This document shows, piece by piece, positions 2 to 19,561 of a DNA stretch of 22,410 bases. Within the stretch, counting starts at the first letter, position 1. Every line of letters starts with the position of its first letter. The notes beneath the pieces were generated by a model that ran no database searches, was not told the origin of the DNA, and saw only the letters and a list, made by a program, of their open reading frames with translations. Origin of the DNA: a virus; IMG/VR virus record IMGVR_UViG_3300009506_000203, one strand, 5' to 3'. The position numbers and the translations under genes are program-made.

Positions 2-958
2 GACCACGTCAACATCCGGCTGAAGCTGTCCCACCGGGTCAGCTTCGAGGGTGACCCCGAGAAGTGGTTCGACGTGGAGAACTACGTCAAGTTCCTGTGC
101 GACCACGTCCGGTCGGTGCTCAAGGGCGCCGTCAAGCGGATGACCGTCGAGAGCTTCTACGAGAACGCTGTGGACTTCGTCCGCGATACGATTCTCGGGA
201 AGGCCGAGGAGAAGGCCGGTCGGCCAGGCATGGTGTTCGAGGAGAACGGCATGCGCATCGTGGACATCGAGGTGCTGAGCATCCAGATCGTGGATCAGAC
301 GGTGTCCCAGCTGCTCGCGCAGGCGCAGCATGATGTCGTCGCCGGCAACATCATGCTCGACAAGGAGCGGCGCCAGCTGGTACTGACCCAGGAGCGTGAG
401 CGTGTCGCGCGCGAGCGCCGCGAGGCCGAGTACGAGACCGCCGCCCACGGGCTGAAGCTCACGTCGCAGCAGATCGCGGCCGAGCTTCAGGTCGAGATCG
501 AGCGGGCCAACAGCCAGCTCCAGCAGCAGAACAAGGAGAAGCAGGCCGTCGTGGCGGCCCGCGAGGCGATCTCCGACACCGAGCACAAGGCCAGCCTGGA
601 TCGGATCCAGGCGACCGAGCAGCAGCGGCTCAACGTCAAGAAGTCCGAGATCGACCTCCAGCGCGAGAGCCTGGAGGCCGAGGCCAACTCCGTGGTCAAG
701 CGGTTCGAGGCGCTTCAGCCACGGTTCACCGAGGCGCTGCTGGCGCTCCGCGACAGCCGCACCATCGAGGCCGTGGCCGAGGCGTGGAGCATGAACCGGG
801 TCGTCGGCGGCGCCAGCGTGGCCGACGCGCTGAGCACGGTGTTCAAGAACACCCCGCTCGGTGGGATCGCGCAGCGGCTCGCTGGCAGCAACGGCGAGTC
901 CGCTACGGTCGTTCCCGAGCCGCCGCAGCCGCCGACGAGGCCGCGTAGCCGGTCGTAG
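2..958 (+). CDS. SPFH/band-7 (flotillin-like) domain protein, 5'-truncated by the window edge
   Basis: The reading frame is open from nt 2, and listed ORF 74..958 is only its in-window Met-to-stop part. The block IVDIEVLSIQIVDQTVSQLLAQAQ followed by a long Q/E/R-rich coiled coil is typical of the C-terminal half of SPFH proteins. GC3 is high. Confidence 0.5.
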   Translation, partial: DHVNIRLKLSHRVSFEGDPEKWFDVENYVKFLCDHVRSVLKGAVKRMTVESFYENAVDFVRDTILGKAEEKAGRPGMVFEENGMRIVDIEVLSIQIVDQTVSQLLAQAQHDVVAGNIMLDKERRQLVLTQERERVARERREAEYETAAHGLKLTSQQIAAELQVEIERANSQLQQQNKEKQAVVAAREAISDTEHKASLDRIQATEQQRLNVKKSEIDLQRESLEAEANSVVKRFEALQPRFTEALLALRDSRTIEAVAEAWSMNRVVGGASVADALSTVFKNTPLGGIAQRLAGSNGESATVVPEPPQPPTRPRSRS

Positions 959-6517: not shown

Positions 6518-7204
6518 GTGACGCCCTGGCATGACTGCCGCAAAGCAGCTGCATGCTGCGTCGAGCTGGCACGGCTCGTGATGGCAGCTGCCGCGAAGCC
6601 CGCTGGATTTGGGTCGCAACCGGTGAGGGCAGCCAAACACCGCCGCCAGATGACTGATGCGGAGAGGACGATCGAGTGCGCGCTCCAGTTCGTCGAGAGC
6701 TACATCGACGGGACGATCTGCGAGTGGGCTGTCAACGATGACGACTACGACGGTCGCGATCCAATCGCTTGGATCTATGACGCAGCGGCGGAGTACGCCG
6801 ATGACGCATGGCGCGCGGGGTTTCTGCATGGCGAAGCCGATCGTAGTGCAGCCGGGGACATCGCAAAGCTCGGTTGCACCATTGTGCAGAAGTGGGCCGC
6901 AAACTCTACTGGTGGGGGAGCAGTGCCAAACACGATGGTGCAGCAAGCGGCGCAACTAGCGATCGGAGTCCGCGGGAACGTTGACTACGACGAGGTCTCG
7001 GCCGTCGCCTGTCGATGGCGATTCCACGACGCGCTCGGTGATGACACGGCTCCGACCGAGGAGCTGCGGCTGGCCTTCGAGGCTGCGTGGGACATCGGCC
7101 AGTATGAGTTTGCCTACCAGCTATGCCGACCACTCGACGAGGATATGATAGAAGATGAGCATGGAGATCGAGAGGAAGTTCCTGCTGCCGAGTCTGCCGG
7201 CTGA
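6518..7204 (+). CDS. hypothetical acidic protein; start uncertain (GTG 6518 or ATG 6581)
   Basis: The listed ORF 6314..7204 overlaps the upstream gene, but its first ~65 codons look like off-frame S/R/P-rich sequence. The first plausible starts after stop 6507 are GTG 6518 and ATG 6581. Confidence 0.4.
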   Translation: MTPWHDCRKAAACCVELARLVMAAAAKPAGFGSQPVRAAKHRRQMTDAERTIECALQFVESYIDGTICEWAVNDDDYDGRDPIAWIYDAAAEYADDAWRAGFLHGEADRSAAGDIAKLGCTIVQKWAANSTGGGAVPNTMVQQAAQLAIGVRGNVDYDEVSAVACRWRFHDALGDDTAPTEELRLAFEAAWDIGQYEFAYQLCRPLDEDMIEDEHGDREEVPAAESAG

Positions 7205-7622
7205 GATCCGGTCCATCACTCCGCTTACGATCACTCAGGGCTACGTCTTCGTCGAGCCCGGTGAGCTGCGACTGCGCGAGCAGGGCGACATCCAGTTCGT
7301 CGTGACGGTCAAGGACGATGGCAACCTCGCGCGTCGTGAGTGGTCAACAGAGGTCCCACGCTGGGCGTTCGACCTGCTGTGGCGTCAGACTGAGGGGCGT
7401 CGGCTGCGCAAGCTCCGCCGTATCGTCAAGACTGAGAAGCACACTCTCGAAGTCGATGAGTACGTGGGCAGCCTGACTGGCCTGTTCATCCTCGAAGTCG
7501 AGTTCCCGAGCGAGGCAGCCGCCGCAGCGTTCGAGCTTCCATGGTGGGGCCGAGACGCGCAGGAGGTCACGCAGGACCCGGCCTACAAGAACAAGCGGCT
7601 GGCGGTCAGCGGGCGACCTTGA
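7155..7622 (+). CDS. CYTH-domain (triphosphate tunnel metalloenzyme) protein
   Basis: The N-terminal MSMEIERKFLL is the CYTH EIERKFL signature. GAGGA lies 12 nt upstream. There is a 50-nt overlap with the upstream gene. Confidence 0.55.
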   Translation: MSMEIERKFLLPSLPAEIRSITPLTITQGYVFVEPGELRLREQGDIQFVVTVKDDGNLARREWSTEVPRWAFDLLWRQTEGRRLRKLRRIVKTEKHTLEVDEYVGSLTGLFILEVEFPSEAAAAAFELPWWGRDAQEVTQDPAYKNKRLAVSGRP

Positions 7623-7635
7623 TAGACTGCTGAGC

Positions 7636-7920
7636 ATGCTGGAAGGGAAGCGCACGAAATGTCCGGCCGACGTTCGCCGGGACCTCGTTCGGCTGGCGAA
7701 GGTCGGCCGTAGGCTGCGGCGGCAGATCCGCGAACAAGGCTACACCTTCGACACCGCAGCCATGCCAGAGCGGAAGCTCCGACTGCGTGACGAGGAAGCC
7801 GTCCAGCACGGGCAGCGGCTCGTCGCCGAGGCCGAAGTCGCCGTTCGTCGGGGGCAGTGCGCTGCCGCGCGGGACAAGCTCAACGCGGCCGCGGAGTTCC
7901 TGAACTGGGCCGCGCTGTAA
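7636..7920 (+). CDS. hypothetical basic protein (94 aa), leaderless
   Basis: TGATAGACT (7620-7628) ends 7 nt before ATG 7636, and there is no SD. Confidence 0.4.
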   Translation: MLEGKRTKCPADVRRDLVRLAKVGRRLRRQIREQGYTFDTAAMPERKLRLRDEEAVQHGQRLVAEAEVAVRRGQCAAARDKLNAAAEFLNWAAL

Positions 7921-7939
7921 CCAGCTGAAATTACTCCGC

Positions 7940-7965
7940 TGTATCATCGATCGTAGCCACGATCG
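7940..7965 (+). promoter_or_regulatory. TGTATCAT -10-like element followed by palindrome site 3 (GATCGTAGCCACGATC, 7949-7964)
   Basis: The near-palindrome has GATCG/CGATC arms. TATCAT (7942-7947) is immediately upstream. Confidence 0.4.
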
Positions 7966-8267: not shown

Positions 8268-9651
8268 CGAGCCCGACCTCGACTTCTCGAACCTGCCCGT
8301 CATCGAGCTGGAGTACACGGTCCCCGAGGACGACACCAGCCTGTTCCTCGTTCCGGCCGCGCGGCTGCCCTACCTGCTGGAGCGTATCAAGAAGCTCCAG
8401 AGCCGCCAGAAGCGGCTCGCGAAGGTTGGGCCGCTGGCGGACGCGGCGTTGATCACTGTCGAGGTGACCGCGCGGCAGCTCCGGCCGCCACGGTGCATCT
8501 TCTGCGGGCACGACCAGGTCCCGGCGCACTACAACGACGGCCGCTGCAAGTACGCCGCGGGGTACTGGCGTCCCGGCTCGCCGCGCGTCTACTACCTGTG
8601 CCGCGTCGAGGGTCCGCGCGCCAAGCTCGCCGACTGGGAGTTCATCGCGACTCTCCAGCACGAGGATGCAGGAACCATCCTCCGTGCTGTTCCGGGCGCT
8701 GAGATCGCCGAGGGTGAGCTGGACCGCTTTCGCAACGTGAAGCCGCATTGCGAGCACTGCAACGCTCGCCGCTACCGCAAGGACTCGTTCGTGGTCCGGC
8801 ACGATGACGGTACTCTCCGTCAGGTCGGCCGCACCTGCCTGGGCAAGTACCTGGGTGGCGGCGTCGATCCGAAGGCTATCGCGCGGCTCGCCGAGCTGCT
8901 CATCGAGGCCCGCGGCGCCGCCGATGAGGAGCCCGAGCTGGGCTGGGGGTCCGGCGGCCCGCTCGTCGGCCCGATCAGCGACTTCCTCATCTTCGTCGCT
9001 GCCTGCATCCGGCTCGAAGGCTGGCTGCCGCGCAGCAAGGCCGGGGACGACGAGGTCCCGACCGCAGACCGCGCCTGGGCGCTTCAGTTCCCCTGGTCCC
9101 AGAAGGGTCGTGAGGAAGCGGAGCGCTTCCGCAACCAGATCGAGGACCGCGATGTCGAGCTGGCCCAGGCCGCACTCGACTGCGTTCGGCGCGAACTGAA
9201 CGAGCACAACACCCGCAGCGACTATGAGCACAACCTGCGCGTCGCCTGCGCTGCTGATGTCGTCAAGGGCCGCACCGCTGGCCTGGCGGCCTCGGTGGTG
9301 ACCTGGTACGAGCGGCGCCTGGTCCACGAGCAGCGCCGCCAGGCCGCGCAGAGAGCGGCTCGAAGGGCTGCCAAGCACTCTGAGCACGTCGGCGCAGTCG
9401 GCGACATGATCAACGTCGTCGTGACCGTCCGCGGGATCTCCGATGGCTTCACCGACTACGGTGCCTACCACTTCCACCGCTTCGTCGATGTGAACGACAA
9501 CAACATCATTTGGCGCTCGACCCGTGAGCGGCTCGAAGTCGGCGCGACCTACGAGCTGCGCGGCAAGATCAAGGAGCACGGTGAGTGGAAGGGTATCAAG
9601 CAGACCCAGCTGACTCGGTGCCGGGTCCTCAACAAGATCGACAAGAACTAG
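8257..9651 (+). CDS. large hypothetical protein with C4 zinc ribbons (464 aa)
   Basis: GGAGG lies 6 nt upstream of ATG 8257. It has CIFCG...C and CEHCN...C motifs and a C-terminal beta-rich domain. The upstream part of listed ORF 8134..9651 is S/T-rich off-frame sequence. Confidence 0.55.
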   Translation: MFRDEPDLDFSNLPVIELEYTVPEDDTSLFLVPAARLPYLLERIKKLQSRQKRLAKVGPLADAALITVEVTARQLRPPRCIFCGHDQVPAHYNDGRCKYAAGYWRPGSPRVYYLCRVEGPRAKLADWEFIATLQHEDAGTILRAVPGAEIAEGELDRFRNVKPHCEHCNARRYRKDSFVVRHDDGTLRQVGRTCLGKYLGGGVDPKAIARLAELLIEARGAADEEPELGWGSGGPLVGPISDFLIFVAACIRLEGWLPRSKAGDDEVPTADRAWALQFPWSQKGREEAERFRNQIEDRDVELAQAALDCVRRELNEHNTRSDYEHNLRVACAADVVKGRTAGLAASVVTWYERRLVHEQRRQAAQRAARRAAKHSEHVGAVGDMINVVVTVRGISDGFTDYGAYHFHRFVDVNDNNIIWRSTRERLEVGATYELRGKIKEHGEWKGIKQTQLTRCRVLNKIDKN

Positions 9652-10348: not shown

Positions 10349-10871
10349 CCTGGTGGACGTAGGACTTCGCGCAGGTCACGGCTCGACGAAGCGTATTCTC
10401 GTGGCAGGGGAGCGCGCCCTGACCACGAAGGCGCTTCGCAGTCCACTTGCCGCCCTTCTGGTCGAAGGCGATGGACACGCCGTTGATCTTGCCCACCCAC
10501 CCAACGATCGACCGGCGGAACCGGATGCCGCTCATCTTGCGGTTCATCTGGACCCCAGCCAGCTCGACCTCGTCGTAGCGAGACTGGTCGTGCAGCGGCC
10601 GGCCGGAGTACTTGGTCGAGCAGACGGGAACGTCCTCGTGCGTCCAGGAGGCCGGAAGTCGGTTCCGCTTGTTGCAGCTCACCAGGAACAGGCCACCCTC
10701 CGGGCCCTTTCCAGGGCACGCGAAGTTGATGTCCACGTCGCCGACTCCTGAGCCGCTCTCGCTGATCGCCTTCTGCACGGCATCCTTCCAGCCGCGAGTA
10801 GACACTGGGTAGCTGCCGAAGCGCTGGCTTCCGGCGGGCGTCGTGACCACGAACTTGCACTTGCCGTTCAT
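10341..10871 (-). CDS. hypothetical Cys/His-containing protein (176 aa)
   Basis: The internal ATG at 10871 has AGGA upstream. The alternative frame 10345..10986 is R/P-rich sequence. There is an 8-nt convergent overlap with the gene ending at 10348. Confidence 0.45.
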   Translation of the reverse strand: MNGKCKFVVTTPAGSQRFGSYPVSTRGWKDAVQKAISESGSGVGDVDINFACPGKGPEGGLFLVSCNKRNRLPASWTHEDVPVCSTKYSGRPLHDQSRYDEVELAGVQMNRKMSGIRFRRSIVGWVGKINGVSIAFDQKGGKWTAKRLRGQGALPCHENTLRRAVTCAKSYVHQAR

Positions 10872-13120: not shown

Positions 13121-13770
13121 TACTTTCGAGGGCGGCGTGGCCGGAAAGAGACGCGTGCCTGGACGGGCTCGCAGTTATAGCCCCATTCCGACAGTGAGTT
13201 GCCGTCCGTCCGAAGGCACGCGGCTGGGACTCGCTTCGAGAGCACACACATGTCCTGGGACGGGTCGGTCCCGTGCCGGCCGTGCTGGATCGCGTAGTCT
13301 CGGGACGTGGTCACCCAGTCGCCGTTGTTGATTTCGCGGACATCGCAGGGAACGGCGCGGTACATCCAGACGCGCGCATCTGGCCGACCTCGGACCCGGC
13401 TCGCGACGTGGAAAGACTCCCAATCGGTCGGTCCGTAGGCGTACCAGTCGGGGCGCCGATAGACATCGTCCGGGTAGACACCGTTGTCGGTCAGATCGTA
13501 GAGCGGCGCGCCTTCCTCACCCGCGGGCCGGTGTTGCATCCCGTAGTCATCCGGCGCCGCGCCGAACAGCCCGCGTAGGCCGCGGACCAAGCCACGTAGC
13601 AACCCGAAGCCGCGGAACTGGGGCCGCTGCTCCGCGTAGCTCGACGCGACGACGTAGCCGTTGGCGATCTTCTCGGCGTGTCGCTCGGCCTGGTCAGGAA
13701 ACTGGTAGACGGCGACCTGTCGAGGGCCGATACCAGGGCGATACTTGAACACCTTGTAGAAGGTTGCCAT
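13120..13770 (-). CDS. hypothetical protein (216 aa)
   Basis: The internal ATG at 13770 has a GAGGA SD and forms a TGATG overlap with the NUDIX stop. The listed ORF 13120..13842 is an upstream extension in the same frame. Confidence 0.5.
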   Translation of the reverse strand: MATFYKVFKYRPGIGPRQVAVYQFPDQAERHAEKIANGYVVASSYAEQRPQFRGFGLLRGLVRGLRGLFGAAPDDYGMQHRPAGEEGAPLYDLTDNGVYPDDVYRRPDWYAYGPTDWESFHVASRVRGRPDARVWMYRAVPCDVREINNGDWVTTSRDYAIQHGRHGTDPSQDMCVLSKRVPAACLRTDGNSLSEWGYNCEPVQARVSFRPRRPRK

Positions 13771-14168
13771 CAGTTCCTCACGAACAGCTCGACGCCCGGG
13801 TGCAGCGGCTGTGGAAGTTGGCCTGGATAGAACCACCCCCAAGCGTCATTCTCCCAGTTGAGTCGCGGCTGCCATCGAGCTGCGGCCCCGGTTGGGATGG
13901 TCGCGATGACGGTCGTGAAAACCCCGCGCGGTGTGCCATCCCTACGGAGGGTGCGCGATGGATGAAAGCTCACGAGCTGCATCGGGGGTAGACTGCCGGT
14001 CTCCTCCTGGAACTCTCGAAGCGCCGTCGCGATTAGGTCGGTATCGCCTGCATCTTCGCGGCCGGCTGGAATCGACCACCAGCCGGGCTCGCTGACCTGC
14101 TGGGACCGTCGGACAAGCAGGACGGCGCCATCATCTCGGACGAGAAGGATGCCAGCGCACTGAGGCAT
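13770..14168 (-). CDS. NUDIX hydrolase
   Basis: REFQEETG is the core of the Nudix box, preceded by PAGREDAGDTD. It is about 130 aa long. Confidence 0.7.
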   Translation of the reverse strand: MPQCAGILLVRDDGAVLLVRRSQQVSEPGWWSIPAGREDAGDTDLIATALREFQEETGSLPPMQLVSFHPSRTLRRDGTPRGVFTTVIATIPTGAAARWQPRLNWENDAWGWFYPGQLPQPLHPGVELFVRN

Positions 14169-17225: not shown

Positions 17226-17528
17226 CTATCTCCTGCGGGGACCGCTCAGCTTGAGCTTGTGCGTGAGGGGCGGCTGGTTCTGCCACCGCGCTGCAATCGG
17301 TGGAGGCTCCGGGATCGTGATCTCCTCACCGACACGCTGGCAGCTGCATCGCTTGATGATGAGTTTGCAGTTCCGCATCTCGCGGTTGTACTTGACCATG
17401 TCGCGGACCAGCGTCCGCAGCGCGTGCCGTCCACGACGGACGGCTTGCTTCATCGTGTCGCCCTCGACGGTCGTTTCGATGTTCGCTCGCGTCGGCTTGG
17501 TGCCGCAGTAGACGATCCCTTCGTACAT
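17226..17528 (-). CDS. hypothetical protein (100 aa)
   Basis: The internal ATG at 17528 has AGGAG 7 nt upstream. The upstream part of listed ORF 17226..17582 is P/S-rich. Confidence 0.45.
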   Translation of the reverse strand: MYEGIVYCGTKPTRANIETTVEGDTMKQAVRRGRHALRTLVRDMVKYNREMRNCKLIIKRCSCQRVGEEITIPEPPPIAARWQNQPPLTHKLKLSGPRRR

Positions 17529-17536
17529 GTTGGCTC

Positions 17537-18034
17537 CTACCGGTGGTGGCGGCGACCGCTCAGCTCGACTGGTGGCGGACATGCGACCGGGCGGGGCTTG
17601 CGCTCCTTCTTCAACCGCTGGAAGCCAGCAGCGCGCCCTCTCTCAATGCCGGCCTTCACGCCCTTCGTCTGCGGGACCTCACCGAGGATCCGCTCAGGTG
17701 GAATGGGCTCGCTGGTCATGTAGAACTCAGGCAGGTTCGGCGACCGCAACGGCCGGTAGACCGGGCAGTGCTCTTTGGTCCCGACGATCCTCACCTTGAG
17801 GATGGTTAGGGGCTCGTCGGGGCAGCCCTCCCTGACGGCCCGCTTCGCGATGTGCTCTGCGGCGTAGTTCGGGCTCCGCGTGAACCAGATGTCGCCCCGC
17901 GGGCCCTTCCTCAATCCCTGCTTCTTGATGAGGCTCGCACGGAGCTTGTAGGTCCCGTGGTAGCCCACGAAGTCACACTTGCCGAAGGGCTGGACCTCGA
18001 CCCACTTGCCTAGCTGGCGGCGTCGCCTTGACAT
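17537..18034 (-). CDS. minimal Tpt1/KptA-like (NAD-dependent ADP-ribosyl/2'-phosphotransferase fold) protein with a basic C-terminal tail
   Basis: VGYHGTYKLRASLIKKQGLRKGPRGDIWFTRS...EPLTILKV parallels KptA LYHGTASRFLDEIKKQGL...RHYVHLS...SPVILTV. The N-terminal RNA-binding lobe is absent. The start is leaderless at ATG 18034. Confidence 0.4.
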   Translation of the reverse strand: MSRRRRQLGKWVEVQPFGKCDFVGYHGTYKLRASLIKKQGLRKGPRGDIWFTRSPNYAAEHIAKRAVREGCPDEPLTILKVRIVGTKEHCPVYRPLRSPNLPEFYMTSEPIPPERILGEVPQTKGVKAGIERGRAAGFQRLKKERKPRPVACPPPVELSGRRHHR

Positions 18035-18073
18035 GGGCCCCAGTATACACGGTCTCGGATCGCAGCTGTGATC
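18035..18073 (-). promoter_or_regulatory. leaderless promoter GTGTATACT plus palindrome site 4 (GATCGCAGCTGTGATC, 18058-18073)
   Basis: On the minus strand, TATACT ends 7 nt before ATG 18034. The palindrome lies 10 nt upstream of the -10, in the -35 position. Confidence 0.45.
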
Positions 18074-18246
18074 GAGCGGCCTGCGACCGGGCCCGCGGTC
18101 GAACCCGCGGCCGAGACATCGAGACAGCGATACCGGAGCGGGGCCATCCCCCCGAATCGCCACGGGGTGGCGGCACAGTTCTGTGCAGGCCCACTGAGAT
18201 GTGCTCTACTGGTGGCGGAGACGTTCGAGGTGGCTGGGTGCCGCGG

Positions 18247-18284
18247 CGCCCGCCAGGCTGAGCTGGTCTGGCGGGCGTCATTTT
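18247..18284 (+). terminator. intrinsic terminator-like hairpin (10-bp stem CGCCCGCCAG/CTGGCGGGCG, then TCATTTTG)
   Basis: It is a perfect inverted repeat with a T-run, and no plus-strand CDS lies upstream. Confidence 0.45.
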
Positions 18285-18440
18285 GCCGGCCTTCGAGCCG
18301 CCCGAGCTGGCCGCCCCGCGCAGCTCGTGTGGGCTCCTGTCGCGCCCATGGCCGAGCTGGTTGGGCCGCGCGGCCAGCGCCCGCGACGAGGCCACAGAGG
18401 CGCTCCTGGAGCGTCCTGGAGGGCATGCACTATACGCCCG

Positions 18441-18720
18441 ATCGGAAGATCCAATTTTGGGGGTCTAACTACCTTGATCGGGCCCTTTTTCGGCCCGTTT
18501 CCCCTTTGATTACCGGCCTGTGTAGGTGATCGTTACTCAGGGTTAGATCCCTCCCCTACCCCTTATAGATCCGCTGGTACATCTATCAACTTTTCATAGA
18601 TTTACTAGCCGAAACTAAGGAGGGTATAGGGACTTCTAACCTTGTAGATTTCGGGTGTTTTCAGTAGGGATCTCACGGAGATCAAGGTCCCCCTCCAATT
18701 GTTAGTGGTACGGCGCGTCA
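18441..18720. repeat. AT-rich (about 45-50% GC) repeat island
   Basis: It contains TCTAAC twice and GGTTAGA as inverted copies. It has three YRTAGATYY direct repeats, a GATCTC-acg-GAGATC palindrome, and an orphan AAGGAGG. Confidence 0.4.
18479..18505 (+). terminator. hairpin CGGGCC-ctttttc-GGCCCG followed by TTTCCCCTTTGATT
   Basis: It has a 6-bp GC stem and a T-rich tail, at the edge of the AT-rich island. Confidence 0.4.
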
Positions 18721-18796
18721 AAGTTGAAATGTAGTCGTGGCAACGGGTAGTACACTGCAAGAAAGTCACTGGCCCTTGCGGCCGGTGACTGTGAAT

Positions 18797-18868
18797 GTCG
18801 TTGACGTGCTATGTCAACGTCGCACGCTGTCGTTGCACGTCGCGAGCGTGCCGTGTACGATCCCAACG
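18797..18868 (+). promoter_or_regulatory. operator repeats plus a sigma70-like promoter TTGCAC-17-TACGAT for the RHH-AP2 gene
   Basis: Direct repeats TGTCGTTGACGT (18797-18808) and TGTCGTTGCACGT (18829-18841) flank the inverted copy GTCAACG (18813-18819). The -10 at 18856-18861 ends 7 nt before ATG 18869. Confidence 0.45.
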
Positions 18869-19561
18869 ATGCCGCCGAAGCACCGTCTCACGGTTCGCAT
18901 GGAGGATGACCTCTATGACTACCTGCATCAACGCGCGGCACGAAATTTCCGCACGGCACCCGACGAAGTGCAGGCGATCGTATTTGCGCTGAGGGCTGCT
19001 GAGCGCGCTGCGGATACCTCTCCGTTGCCGTCGTCCGAGCTGCCGGCCGTGCTGACGGGCGCTTCCGACGCGGGACCTGAAGCGGAGCCCGAGGCGCCCC
19101 CCGAGCCCGGTGTGACCCACAAGCTCCGCGGCCCGCGCGGCACCCTCTCGGGCTACTTCGGCGTACACCGGTACGGGAAGCGTTGGATAGCCAAGCTGAC
19201 CAGAAATGGTGTAGCGACAAAGGTCGGTGTGTTCGACGACCCGGAGGAAGCTGCCCAAGCCTACGACGACGCCGTCAGGACCAGCGGAACTGGCGGCCGG
19301 CTCAACTTCCCGACGGAGCAGGAGGAAGCTGCACGGTCCAGCGGCGGCTTGGAGACGCTGCCTGACTGGATCCGCGTGCAGGGGCCCGGAGCGTCGGACA
19401 TCCCCCCAGAGCATCTTCCTGAAGCTCTACGGCGTGGTCTCATCGCGTCCGGCGAGATGGACGTGCCGCCAGTCGAGGACCACTACGAGGCGCCCTCTGA
19501 TGAGGACGCGGACCTGGTCCCGGACCCGGACATCGACCCCGATCCGCCCTCCCTCCACTGA
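18869..19561 (+). CDS. ribbon-helix-helix + AP2 DNA-binding domain regulator
   Basis: The N-terminal RLTVRMEDDLYDYLHQRAARNF is an RHH beta-strand and helix. GYFGVHRYGKRWIAKLTRNGVATKVGVFDDPEEAAQAYDDAV is an AP2 domain. The upstream 44 codons of listed ORF 18737..19561 cover the operator repeats. Confidence 0.6.
   Translation: MPPKHRLTVRMEDDLYDYLHQRAARNFRTAPDEVQAIVFALRAAERAADTSPLPSSELPAVLTGASDAGPEAEPEAPPEPGVTHKLRGPRGTLSGYFGVHRYGKRWIAKLTRNGVATKVGVFDDPEEAAQAYDDAVRTSGTGGRLNFPTEQEEAARSSGGLETLPDWIRVQGPGASDIPPEHLPEALRRGLIASGEMDVPPVEDHYEAPSDEDADLVPDPDIDPDPPSLH

Follow-up and report, generated by a model that had tools for sequence, protein, structure and literature searches.

Enzymes of the Tpt1/KptA family (PF01885) are the closest described relatives of the protein studied here, the 165-amino-acid (aa) product of a gene on the viral contig IMGVR_UViG_3300009506_000203 (IMG/VR). 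In Tpt1, the lobe that binds nicotinamide adenine dinucleotide (NAD+) carries an HGT motif with contacts to the adenosine ribose and the nicotinamide, an Ile that contacts the adenine, and R119, the only Arg of the catalytic tetrad within this lobe, while H123 provides the second His of the H-H-h triad (h, hydrophobic residue) and an Arg following helix alpha2 arches over the ADP-ribose (PMC6333775, PMC10415124). The isolated NAD+ lobe of yeast Tpt1 retains NAD+ binding in the crystal (PMC10415124). Tpt1 enzymes furthermore ADP-ribosylate 5'-phosphate ends by a substrate-assisted attack of the phosphate on C1'' (PMC10415124; PMC6582358 as cited in PMC8120803). Phosphate or nucleic-acid ADP-ribosylation of the Tpt1 type is well documented in vitro, and its biological use beyond tRNA splicing is unclear. 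The DNA analyzed comprises the entire contig of 22,410 nucleotides (22.4 kb; guanine–cytosine (GC) content 63%), hereafter called the window, and "window protein" denotes the product of the minus-strand gene at 17537–18034. The window protein very probably represents a stand-alone Tpt1-like domain with the ADP-ribosyltransferase (ART) fold. It belongs to a rare, conserved, and unnamed family of stand-alone ART domains, in which the domain is complete and not a truncated Tpt1.

The ART-fold domain and its family

The window protein is encoded by an exact ATG-to-stop open reading frame (ORF), in agreement with a first-pass annotation of this DNA, which had not named the strand. The GC content by codon position (0.65/0.53/0.83; GC3 0.83) is usual for genes of this contig, and the ratio of nonsynonymous to synonymous substitution rates (dN/dS) was 0.11–0.21 in comparison with the best two syntenic relatives, on contigs L001 (90.5 kb) and L003 (23 kb), at a dS near 1. 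It is therefore a genuine gene under purifying selection. The isoelectric point of the protein is 10.6, and both termini are basic.

Structure was predicted by two AlphaFold2 models based on alignments of 6 and 14 sequences (predicted local distance difference test (pLDDT) 76 and 81, predicted template modeling score 0.74 and 0.76). Both models show the split beta-sheet with six core strands of the ART superfamily (residues 21–29, 49–52, 76–84, 92–95, 104–107, and 116–119) and two helices (30–39 and 55–68), as well as a short strand (11–13), a long C-terminal helix (124–144), and disordered ends. A Foldseek search against the whole PDB returned Tpt1 structures at ranks 1–15, all with a probability of 1.00, followed by Arr and CC0527. 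The fold anticipated by the first-pass annotation is thus present in the prediction.

At the sequence level, the Pfam model PTS_2-RNA (PF01885) matched the window protein weakly (E-value 0.036; residues 24–63 to model positions 103–139), and the score of 14.5 bits lies under the cut-off of 26, i.e., below the threshold for the Tpt1/KptA family. The same region is matched by this model in 8 of the 14 family members, with a best E-value of 0.0019. The NCBIfam RNA 2'-phosphotransferase model matched the relative P0012 (E-value 0.0018); scores for the NCBIfam equivalog were 12–18 bits and remained below its cut-offs of more than 230. When the 14-sequence family profile was compared to PDB sequences, the best two matches were Tpt1 chains (E-values 0.009 and 0.012) and the next was exotoxin A, whereas a profile built from the six closest homologues gave no match to PDB sequences. 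With both the family profile and Foldseek ranking Tpt1 first, and more than half of the family matched by PTS_2-RNA, the resemblance to the NAD+ lobe goes beyond chance.

A segment of Runella Tpt1 (RslTpt1) aligns without gaps to residues 26–65 of the window protein, which gives the equivalences H26 = H99, T28 = T101, I36 = I109, G40 = G113, R46 = R119, W50 = H123, and K64/R65 = R137/H138. These RslTpt1 positions are NAD+ contact residues probed by mutagenesis (PMC6333775, PMC10415124). All motifs listed in the first-pass annotation were found, namely YHGT (residues 25–28), IKKQGL (36–41), and PLTILKV (75–81). The latter matches the Tpt1 strand "PVVL" and follows a 7-residue insert bearing Cys71, and we liken "EFYMT..IPPERIL" to the final Tpt1 strands "VWL..VP..YI", a comparison of our own made with the fragment "KVWLAD". 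The domain is therefore collinear with the entire NAD+ lobe and is no fragment. Its earlier description as a truncated Tpt1/KptA-like domain was right in that the ART fold is nearest to the Tpt1 NAD+ lobe and that the N-terminal RNA lobe is missing, with merely 25 residues preceding the HGT histidine. The term "truncated" is misleading, however, because the domain is complete and collinear with the whole lobe and its family is under purifying selection. In summary, the domain either derives from the NAD+ lobe of Tpt1/KptA or has this lobe as its closest relative. A circular permutation was also considered, as "CPPPV" near the C-terminus is similar to "CPPEV", the stretch ahead of HGT in Tpt1 of C. 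thermocellum; this match scored 1.3 bits and was taken as chance.

The family is small. A word-indexed search of 5.8 billion proteins yielded six members with 60–100% identity, and an exhaustive HMMER scan of 1.84 billion cluster representatives yielded nine true family clusters at 50% identity (E-values 1e-81 to 4e-12), next to a few multi-domain proteins that match the first half of the ART domain alone. All members originate from metagenome assemblies, and family-wide identity is just 33–49%. A tblastn search with the window protein against 50,697 phage genomes gave no match, a pattern scan of GTDB species genomes and IMG/VR revealed no family relatives, and the window protein itself has no PHROG, PADLOC, or NCBIfam match. 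The contig is syntenic with L001 and L003. Several PHROG families are represented on it, and its RecT-like gene has distant relatives in cultured phages; the genomic setting of the window and its closest relatives is that of a phage. More distant members lie on short contigs and are surrounded by small unannotated ORFs, and family contexts are phage-like wherever the flanking sequence suffices to judge.

Among the multi-domain proteins from the HMMER scan, P0015 (470 aa) and P0018 (337 aa) comprise two tandem ART-like domains that share "HGT...G(F)K...IWFTR..A..A", and P0015 additionally carries an excisionase-type helix–turn–helix. Both match PARP, PTS_2-RNA, ART-PolyVal, and DUF3990 models below the curated cut-offs, with the exception of PARP on P0015 (32.0 versus 26.7 bits). 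They may represent a broader uncharacterized clade with a Trp on beta2, which hhalign links to the window family over residues 21–69 alone (probability 89%). A word-indexed search started from the P0015 ART domain returned nothing, and we therefore left the "HGT...IWFT" clade without a name.

Active-site pocket and candidate activities

In the beta1 motif, H26 and T28 never vary and 13 of the 14 members have G27, in line with the His/Thr motif of the ART superfamily. The conserved NAD+ pocket set, whose counterparts in Tpt1 and toxin ARTs bind the adenosine ribose, the adenine, and the nicotinamide, comprises H26, G27, T28, I36, W50, H61, and R65, of which I36 is invariant as well. An invariant W50 replaces the second His of H-H-h, and 11 residues on follows an equally invariant H61. 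The HMMER alignment to exotoxin A places H61 at Tyr481, and the spacing from W50 equals that between Tyr470 and Tyr481 of exotoxin A; we therefore read the pocket as H-W-H-h. Paired tyrosines of the exotoxin A type stack on the nicotinamide and the ribose in ARTs of the diphtheria-toxin/PARP type. The third position of the triad holds a hydrophobic or aromatic residue ([FLV][YF]) instead of an acidic one, and its presumed location on beta5 follows from analogy to the canonical ART topology (PMC13285283, PMC9825190). No Asp or Glu is invariant anywhere among the 14 members, and beta5 carries no conserved acidic residue or Gln. Compared to the H-Y-[EDQ] clade, W50 and H61 occupy the two aromatic positions, but the conserved acidic residue or Gln on beta5 is missing. 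Further family-specific invariant residues are Y29, R32, A58, A63, G70, C71, P75, G133, P153, and P154. Four cysteines (C20, C71, C90, and C152) are invariant or nearly so, and the only member without C20 also lacks C90. This joint loss hints at paired or clustered roles, and the four residues may together bind a structural metal ion and thereby fix the tail to the core.

The non-canonical triad and the loss of most of the Tpt1 tetrad would fit a catalytically dead ART-fold scaffold or a nucleic-acid or membrane binder, comparable to the pseudo-PARP domains of PARP13 or TASOR. However, such pocket residues are typically lost in pseudo-ARTs, whereas H26, T28, I36, W50, and H61 are retained throughout the family, and G27 with a single exception, despite the low overall identity. 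A dead enzyme is therefore improbable. Rather, the window protein is probably an active NAD+-using enzyme, as judged from the pocket residues. From the conserved pocket and from the literature on the Tpt1 lobe and on ARTs without Glu, we infer a mono-ADP-ribosyltransferase. Active ARTs without the beta5 Glu include Tpt1 on 5'-phosphate nucleic acids and PARP10/11/15 with H-Y-I/L (PMC10415124), as well as the Rhs toxin TreTu, which modifies EF-Tu with a non-canonical R-H-W triad (PMC9825190); a hydrophobic third residue is thus compatible with an active mono-transferase (PMC9825190, PMC10415124).

Small-molecule chemistry has to be weighed against this. The family could comprise Arr-like ADP-ribosyltransferases that inactivate a host-made or environmental anti-phage compound. 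Like the window protein, Arr is an ART domain that stands alone, with a length of about 140 aa, and its sequence carries the YHGT motif. Nevertheless, the Arr triad is H-Y-D with an essential Asp that is not conserved in the family, polybasic termini are ill-suited to a hydrophobic drug substrate, and no sequence-level match to Arr was found in Pfam, family-profile, and member-level searches, which renders this option very improbable. Another possibility is a non-transferring binder of NAD+ or ADP-ribose (ADPR), serving as a sponge for NAD-derived immune signals, or an NAD+ glycohydrolase (NADase) that reshapes host NAD+ pools. This would agree with the lack of a conserved catalytic Glu/Asp, with the small size of the protein, and with a gene position consistent with early expression; ART-fold NAD(P) glycohydrolases are known (PMC13285283), and the H-H-h clade includes makers of soluble ADPR derivatives (PMC9503650). 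Moreover, the same strand encodes a NUDIX hydrolase 3.4 kb downstream, an arrangement also found in L003 and in contig E0f7cr4f, and this neighbor may provide a link to ADP-ribose or NAD metabolism. On the other hand, a small-molecule sponge would need neither the basic termini nor the extra helix nor the CPPP tail, all of which are conserved, and depletion of NAD+ would harm a phage that relies on host metabolism. To our knowledge, the ART fold is absent among sponges. The conservation of the nicotinamide-side residues H26, G27, W50, and H61 suggests NAD+ chemistry over binding of ADPR derivatives, and we therefore favor an enzyme over a pure sponge; overall, a binder or NADase is unlikely.

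A host protein, e.g., RNA polymerase, a translation factor, or a defense complex, might also be the target of mono-ADP-ribosylation, with the basic tails serving in target recognition, as modeled on T4 Alt/ModA, AcrIF11, and TreTu. The last of these illustrates that a non-canonical triad can act on a protein, and AcrIF11, a stand-alone phage ART of about 130 aa with an H-F-H-D motif (PMC12421852), has a pocket similar to H26-W50-H61. For most phage ARTs, modification of macromolecules has been predicted to be a first-line strategy (PMC9503650). However, AcrIF11 requires D115 or D146/E147, whereas the window family has no conserved acidic residue in or around beta5. In addition, the nearest relatives by sequence and fold are the phosphate-acting Tpt1 enzymes, and the main substrates of the H-H-h clade are described as RNA ends, small molecules, and soluble ADPR derivatives (PMC9503650). 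Taken by itself, we rate a protein target as rather unlikely.

Our preferred reading, held tentatively, is that of a complete stand-alone Tpt1-like ART acting as an NAD+-using mono-ADP-ribosyltransferase with a phosphate or nucleic-acid target. The protein would bind NAD+ and employ substrate-assisted chemistry like Tpt1, in that a nucleophile, likeliest the phosphate of an RNA or DNA end or of some other anionic substrate, would attack C1'' of NAD+ and the nicotinamide would leave. Holding the substrate, the task of the missing RNA lobe, would fall to the basic N-terminus together with the basic helix and the tail. The gene would be expressed early from its own leaderless promoter and would serve host takeover or counter-defense. 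Concerning the acceptor on its own, a phosphate or nucleic-acid substrate is possible but doubtful.

The basic elements at both ends deserve a closer description. Residues 1–10 contain five K/R and no acidic residue, with a pLDDT below 50 for residues 1–7, and the R-rich start, which the first-pass annotation did not mention, is kept in close homologues. A twin-arginine translocation (Tat) signal at RRRRQLGK was dropped because no hydrophobic h-region follows. At the other end, the annotation had described a highly basic tail of about 100 aa, which did not hold, as the ART fold reaches to about residue 120 and the remaining ~45 aa consist of a confident helix and a Pro-rich end of ~21 aa. Most of the helix is covered by a stretch with a pLDDT of 94–96 (residues 111–140). 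The tail behind it reads KPRPVACPPPVELSGRRHHR (pLDDT 36–73), with C152, P153, and P154 invariant or nearly so. This basic end could bind nucleic acid or an anionic membrane surface. Two of the 14 members (P0007 and P0014) carry a hydrophobic, transmembrane-like segment at about 181–199 after the CPPP motif, with a Kyte–Doolittle 19-residue mean of 1.7–1.8, and by these segments the family may act at the membrane.

Several points weigh against a Tpt1-like transfer to phosphate. A Trp stands where Tpt1 has the second His of its triad. Of the four Tpt1 catalytic tetrad residues, three lie in the RNA lobe and are missing with it, and the fourth, R46, is variable (R/K in just 6 of 14 members). As P0007 and P0014 carry the transmembrane-like segment, the tail is possibly a membrane element rather than a nucleic-acid binder. 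Furthermore, there is no conserved partner that would indicate the substrate, i.e., no macro, ARH, or NADAR domain, RNA ligase, or 2H phosphoesterase, and early expression is suggested by gene position and a promoter-like box alone. The data are almost as compatible with a protein target or with plain NAD+ hydrolysis; we consider modification of a host protein nearly as likely as the preferred reading, and NADase/binder, Arr-like, and pseudo-enzyme roles are less likely. In its most extended form, the proposal would be a Tpt1-derived mini-ART lineage with an H-W-H pocket, in which polybasic termini and a Cys4-tethered CPPP tail replace the RNA lobe and some members are membrane-anchored, and which ADP-ribosylates a phosphate early in infection (as an RNA/DNA-end cap or on a membrane-proximal phospho-substrate), either to protect phage nucleic acids or to disable host defense. 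In full, this is speculative and unlikely to hold.

If this extended proposal is true, this would be the first phage enzyme shown to use Tpt1-type phosphate ADP-ribosylation as a weapon and not for RNA repair; a host-protein-modifying ART or a pseudo-enzyme would instead be a routine finding. A phage family that keeps the NAD+ lobe alone under strong constraint, together with its own basic elements for holding a substrate, would constitute a natural experiment on what this lobe can do by itself and how it is used in conflict. Its size of 165 aa makes the protein a quick and cheap biochemical target, although it holds no surprise for specialists.

Gene start, operon, and surrounding features

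Coordinates of the gene, its parts, and neighboring features are compiled in the table.

Table. Positions of the ART gene, of elements within its product, and of other features of the window
Feature	Position	Strand	Details
Stand-alone ART-fold protein gene	17537–18034	-	165 aa; ATG 18034–18032, stop TAG 17539–17537; ORF and translation
N-terminal basic stretch	18005–18034	-	MSRRRRQLGK, residues 1–10, predicted disordered
ART-fold core	17675–18004	-	residues 11–120; six core strands, two helices
YHGT motif	17951–17962	-	residues 25–28, strand beta1; H26, T28 = RslTpt1 H99, T101
beta2-to-alpha2 segment IWFT...HIAKR	17840–17890	-	residues 49–65; W50 codon 17885–17887, H61 codon 17852–17854
Strand beta5 EFYMT	17714–17728	-	residues 103–107; strand 104–107 in both models
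C-terminal basic helix	17603–17665	-	residues 124–144; invariant G133; no Tpt1 counterpart
Pro-rich basic tail	17540–17602	-	residues 145–165; C152-P-P-P motif 17570–17581, RRHHR end
-10-like hexamer TATACT	18042–18047	-	ends 7 nt before ATG; likely promoter
Next operon gene	17226–17528	-	100 aa, MYEGIVYCG...; GGAG ribosome-binding site overlaps ART stop; not conserved in relatives
NUDIX hydrolase gene	13770–14168	-	Pfam E-value 1.8e-18
GC-rich stretch	18035–18425		390 nt, 72% GC; no convincing ORF
Conserved non-coding block	18426–18725		~300 nt, 48% GC
Divergent gene	18737–19561	+	274 aa; adjoins the non-coding block
CYTH domain protein gene	7155–7622	+	Pfam E-value 1.5e-5
ORF with vault-protein domain	74–958	+	first 74 residues match PF11978, E-value 4e-17

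The ART gene is the first of a minus-strand gene run that extends from there down to about 12420. Its homologues all begin at a Met equivalent to ATG 18034, as Met-(Ala/Ser)-Arg-Arg. A longer ORF from GTG 18163 is mechanically possible and was dropped because of these homologue starts and of a conserved, promoter-like non-coding box that sits just upstream of ATG 18034. This box, CGTGTATACTGGGGC(C/G)C-ATG, is conserved in the window and in contigs L001, L002, and L003, whereas the surrounding DNA diverges. No Shine–Dalgarno sequence was found between TATACT and the ATG, and given this and the short distance to the start codon, the hexamer probably represents the promoter of a leaderless mRNA. 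A scan for consensus sigma-70 promoters made no call at the box, and its promoter function is putative.

For the 100-aa gene that follows in the operon, no Pfam or PHROG match was obtained; it is succeeded by conserved genes of 105 aa and 87 aa. In L003, the 105-aa gene directly follows the ART gene, and in contig E0f7cr4f, a 69-aa gene does. A toxin–antitoxin or defense system with an ART (DarTG, ParST, CmdTAC, or RES-Xre) was rejected, as neither a conserved neighbor across the window and L001–L008 nor a PADLOC match was seen. L001 (a JGI contig; 10510–10608) and L002 (a 9.2-kb Logan contig; 9105–9204), two assemblies of independent origin, end about 100 nt past the ART stop, while a third contig reads through, and the relatives do not share the next gene (100 aa, 69 aa, or none). 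The site behind the ART gene looks like an assembly-breaking variable spot or a genome end.

Upstream of the ART gene, the GC-rich stretch corresponds to L001 9409–9932 and L003 9612–9947. Between the conserved block and the ART gene, L003 harbors one small gene and L001 and L002 harbor two, i.e., a Kyano_Gp96-like gene of 105–111 aa on the opposite strand and, in L001/L002, an additional 69-aa gene. The non-coding block stands out by its GC content compared to the 63% of the contig and has counterparts in L001 (~9045–9345), L002 (~7640–7940), and L003 (~9113–9415). Its DNA is near-identical in the window and these three contigs, whose flanking proteins share just 43–76% identity. The block contains nested inverted repeats, GGGGGACCTTGATC / GATCAAGGT..CCCCC and CCCTACCCTCCTTA / TAAGGGGTAGGGG, and eight predicted pairs still pair despite changes on both sides. 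It matched no tRNA or Rfam family. Possible roles are those of a replication origin, of a structured RNA, or of a hub that regulates the divergent operons on either side. The adjoining 274-aa protein shows a weak ribbon–helix–helix match (residues 55–81) and a match to the AP2/HNH-associated DNA-binding region phrog_99 (residues 133–199, E-value 2e-10), and is likely a regulator or a DNA binder derived from a homing endonuclease, going by these domain matches. At a greater distance, the CYTH (triphosphate tunnel metalloenzyme) domain protein scored barely over the gathering score, and another ORF, which begins close to the end of the contig and is possibly incomplete, matches the "shoulder" domain of the major vault protein, unusual for a phage contig.

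Comparison with known systems

Tpt1/KptA and the window protein have in common the HGT motif, the Ile (I36), the Gly (G40), and the Arg/His pair after alpha2 (K64/R65), as well as a hydrophobic third triad residue and the lack of a catalytic Glu. The NAD+ lobe fold with its His, Thr, Ile, and post-alpha2 Arg/His contacts is thus present. In contrast to Tpt1, the window protein lacks the winged-helix RNA lobe of ~85 aa and, because of this, the Arg-His-Arg of the tetrad (PMC6333775). It further differs by the Trp in place of the second triad His, the extra invariant H61, the 7-residue insert with Cys71, and the added C-terminal helix and CPPP tail, and its Pfam score is under the gathering threshold. 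Four hallmarks of Tpt1/KptA are therefore missing, i.e., a score above the threshold, the RNA lobe, the tetrad, and the second His of H-H-h.

CC0527/DUF952 and BC2332 are likewise stand-alone ART-fold proteins of the H-H-h type, with unknown function. Unlike the window family, they are encoded on bacterial chromosomes, not by phages, and have neither the basic tail nor the Cys pattern. Family members matched neither the DUF3990 nor the DUF952 model and showed no sequence similarity to CC0527/BC2332. The rifampin ADP-ribosyltransferase Arr acts on a small-molecule substrate and is also devoid of polybasic termini and the Cys pattern.

With regard to mobile elements, AcrIF11 resembles the window protein as a stand-alone ART of about 130 aa, there serving as a phage/plasmid anti-CRISPR, with H-F-H-D instead of H-W-H-h (PMC12421852, PMC8120803). 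The AcrIF11 motif itself contrasts with the canonical H-Y-Y-E (PMC12421852). It differs from the window protein by the acidic residues that it requires, none of which is conserved in the window family, and it was neither among the top structural matches nor similar in sequence to the window family. Most phage ARTs are fast-evolving conflict proteins (PMC9503650). T4 Alt/ModA/ModB and other phage ARTs agree with our proposal in that they are phage-encoded, use NAD+, and are deployed at the start of infection (PMC9503650). They differ by belonging to the R-S-E clade with a catalytic Glu, by their larger size, and by the packaging of some of them into virions, and we saw neither a relation in sequence nor a close one in structure.

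Many small, uncharacterized ART-fold proteins of cultured phages in BFVD share the stand-alone organization and the fold at a size of ~100–150 aa (Foldseek E-values 5.6e-6 to 1e-2, probability 1.00), including S5WKF0 of Pseudomonas phage PaBG ("putative RNA 2'-phosphotransferase", 121 aa) and proteins of the Mycobacterium phages Barnyard (Q856G7) and Tonenili. They differ from the window family by the lack of detectable sequence similarity, and in the BFVD table an annotation label is the only functional description that any of them has. The H-W-H-h pocket without an acidic residue adds a distinct signature to the non-canonical ARTs. Stand-alone ART-fold proteins are already known, and the window family is a distinct, unnamed variant among them by its H-W-H-h pocket, its Cys pattern, and its C-terminal helix with the CPPP tail.

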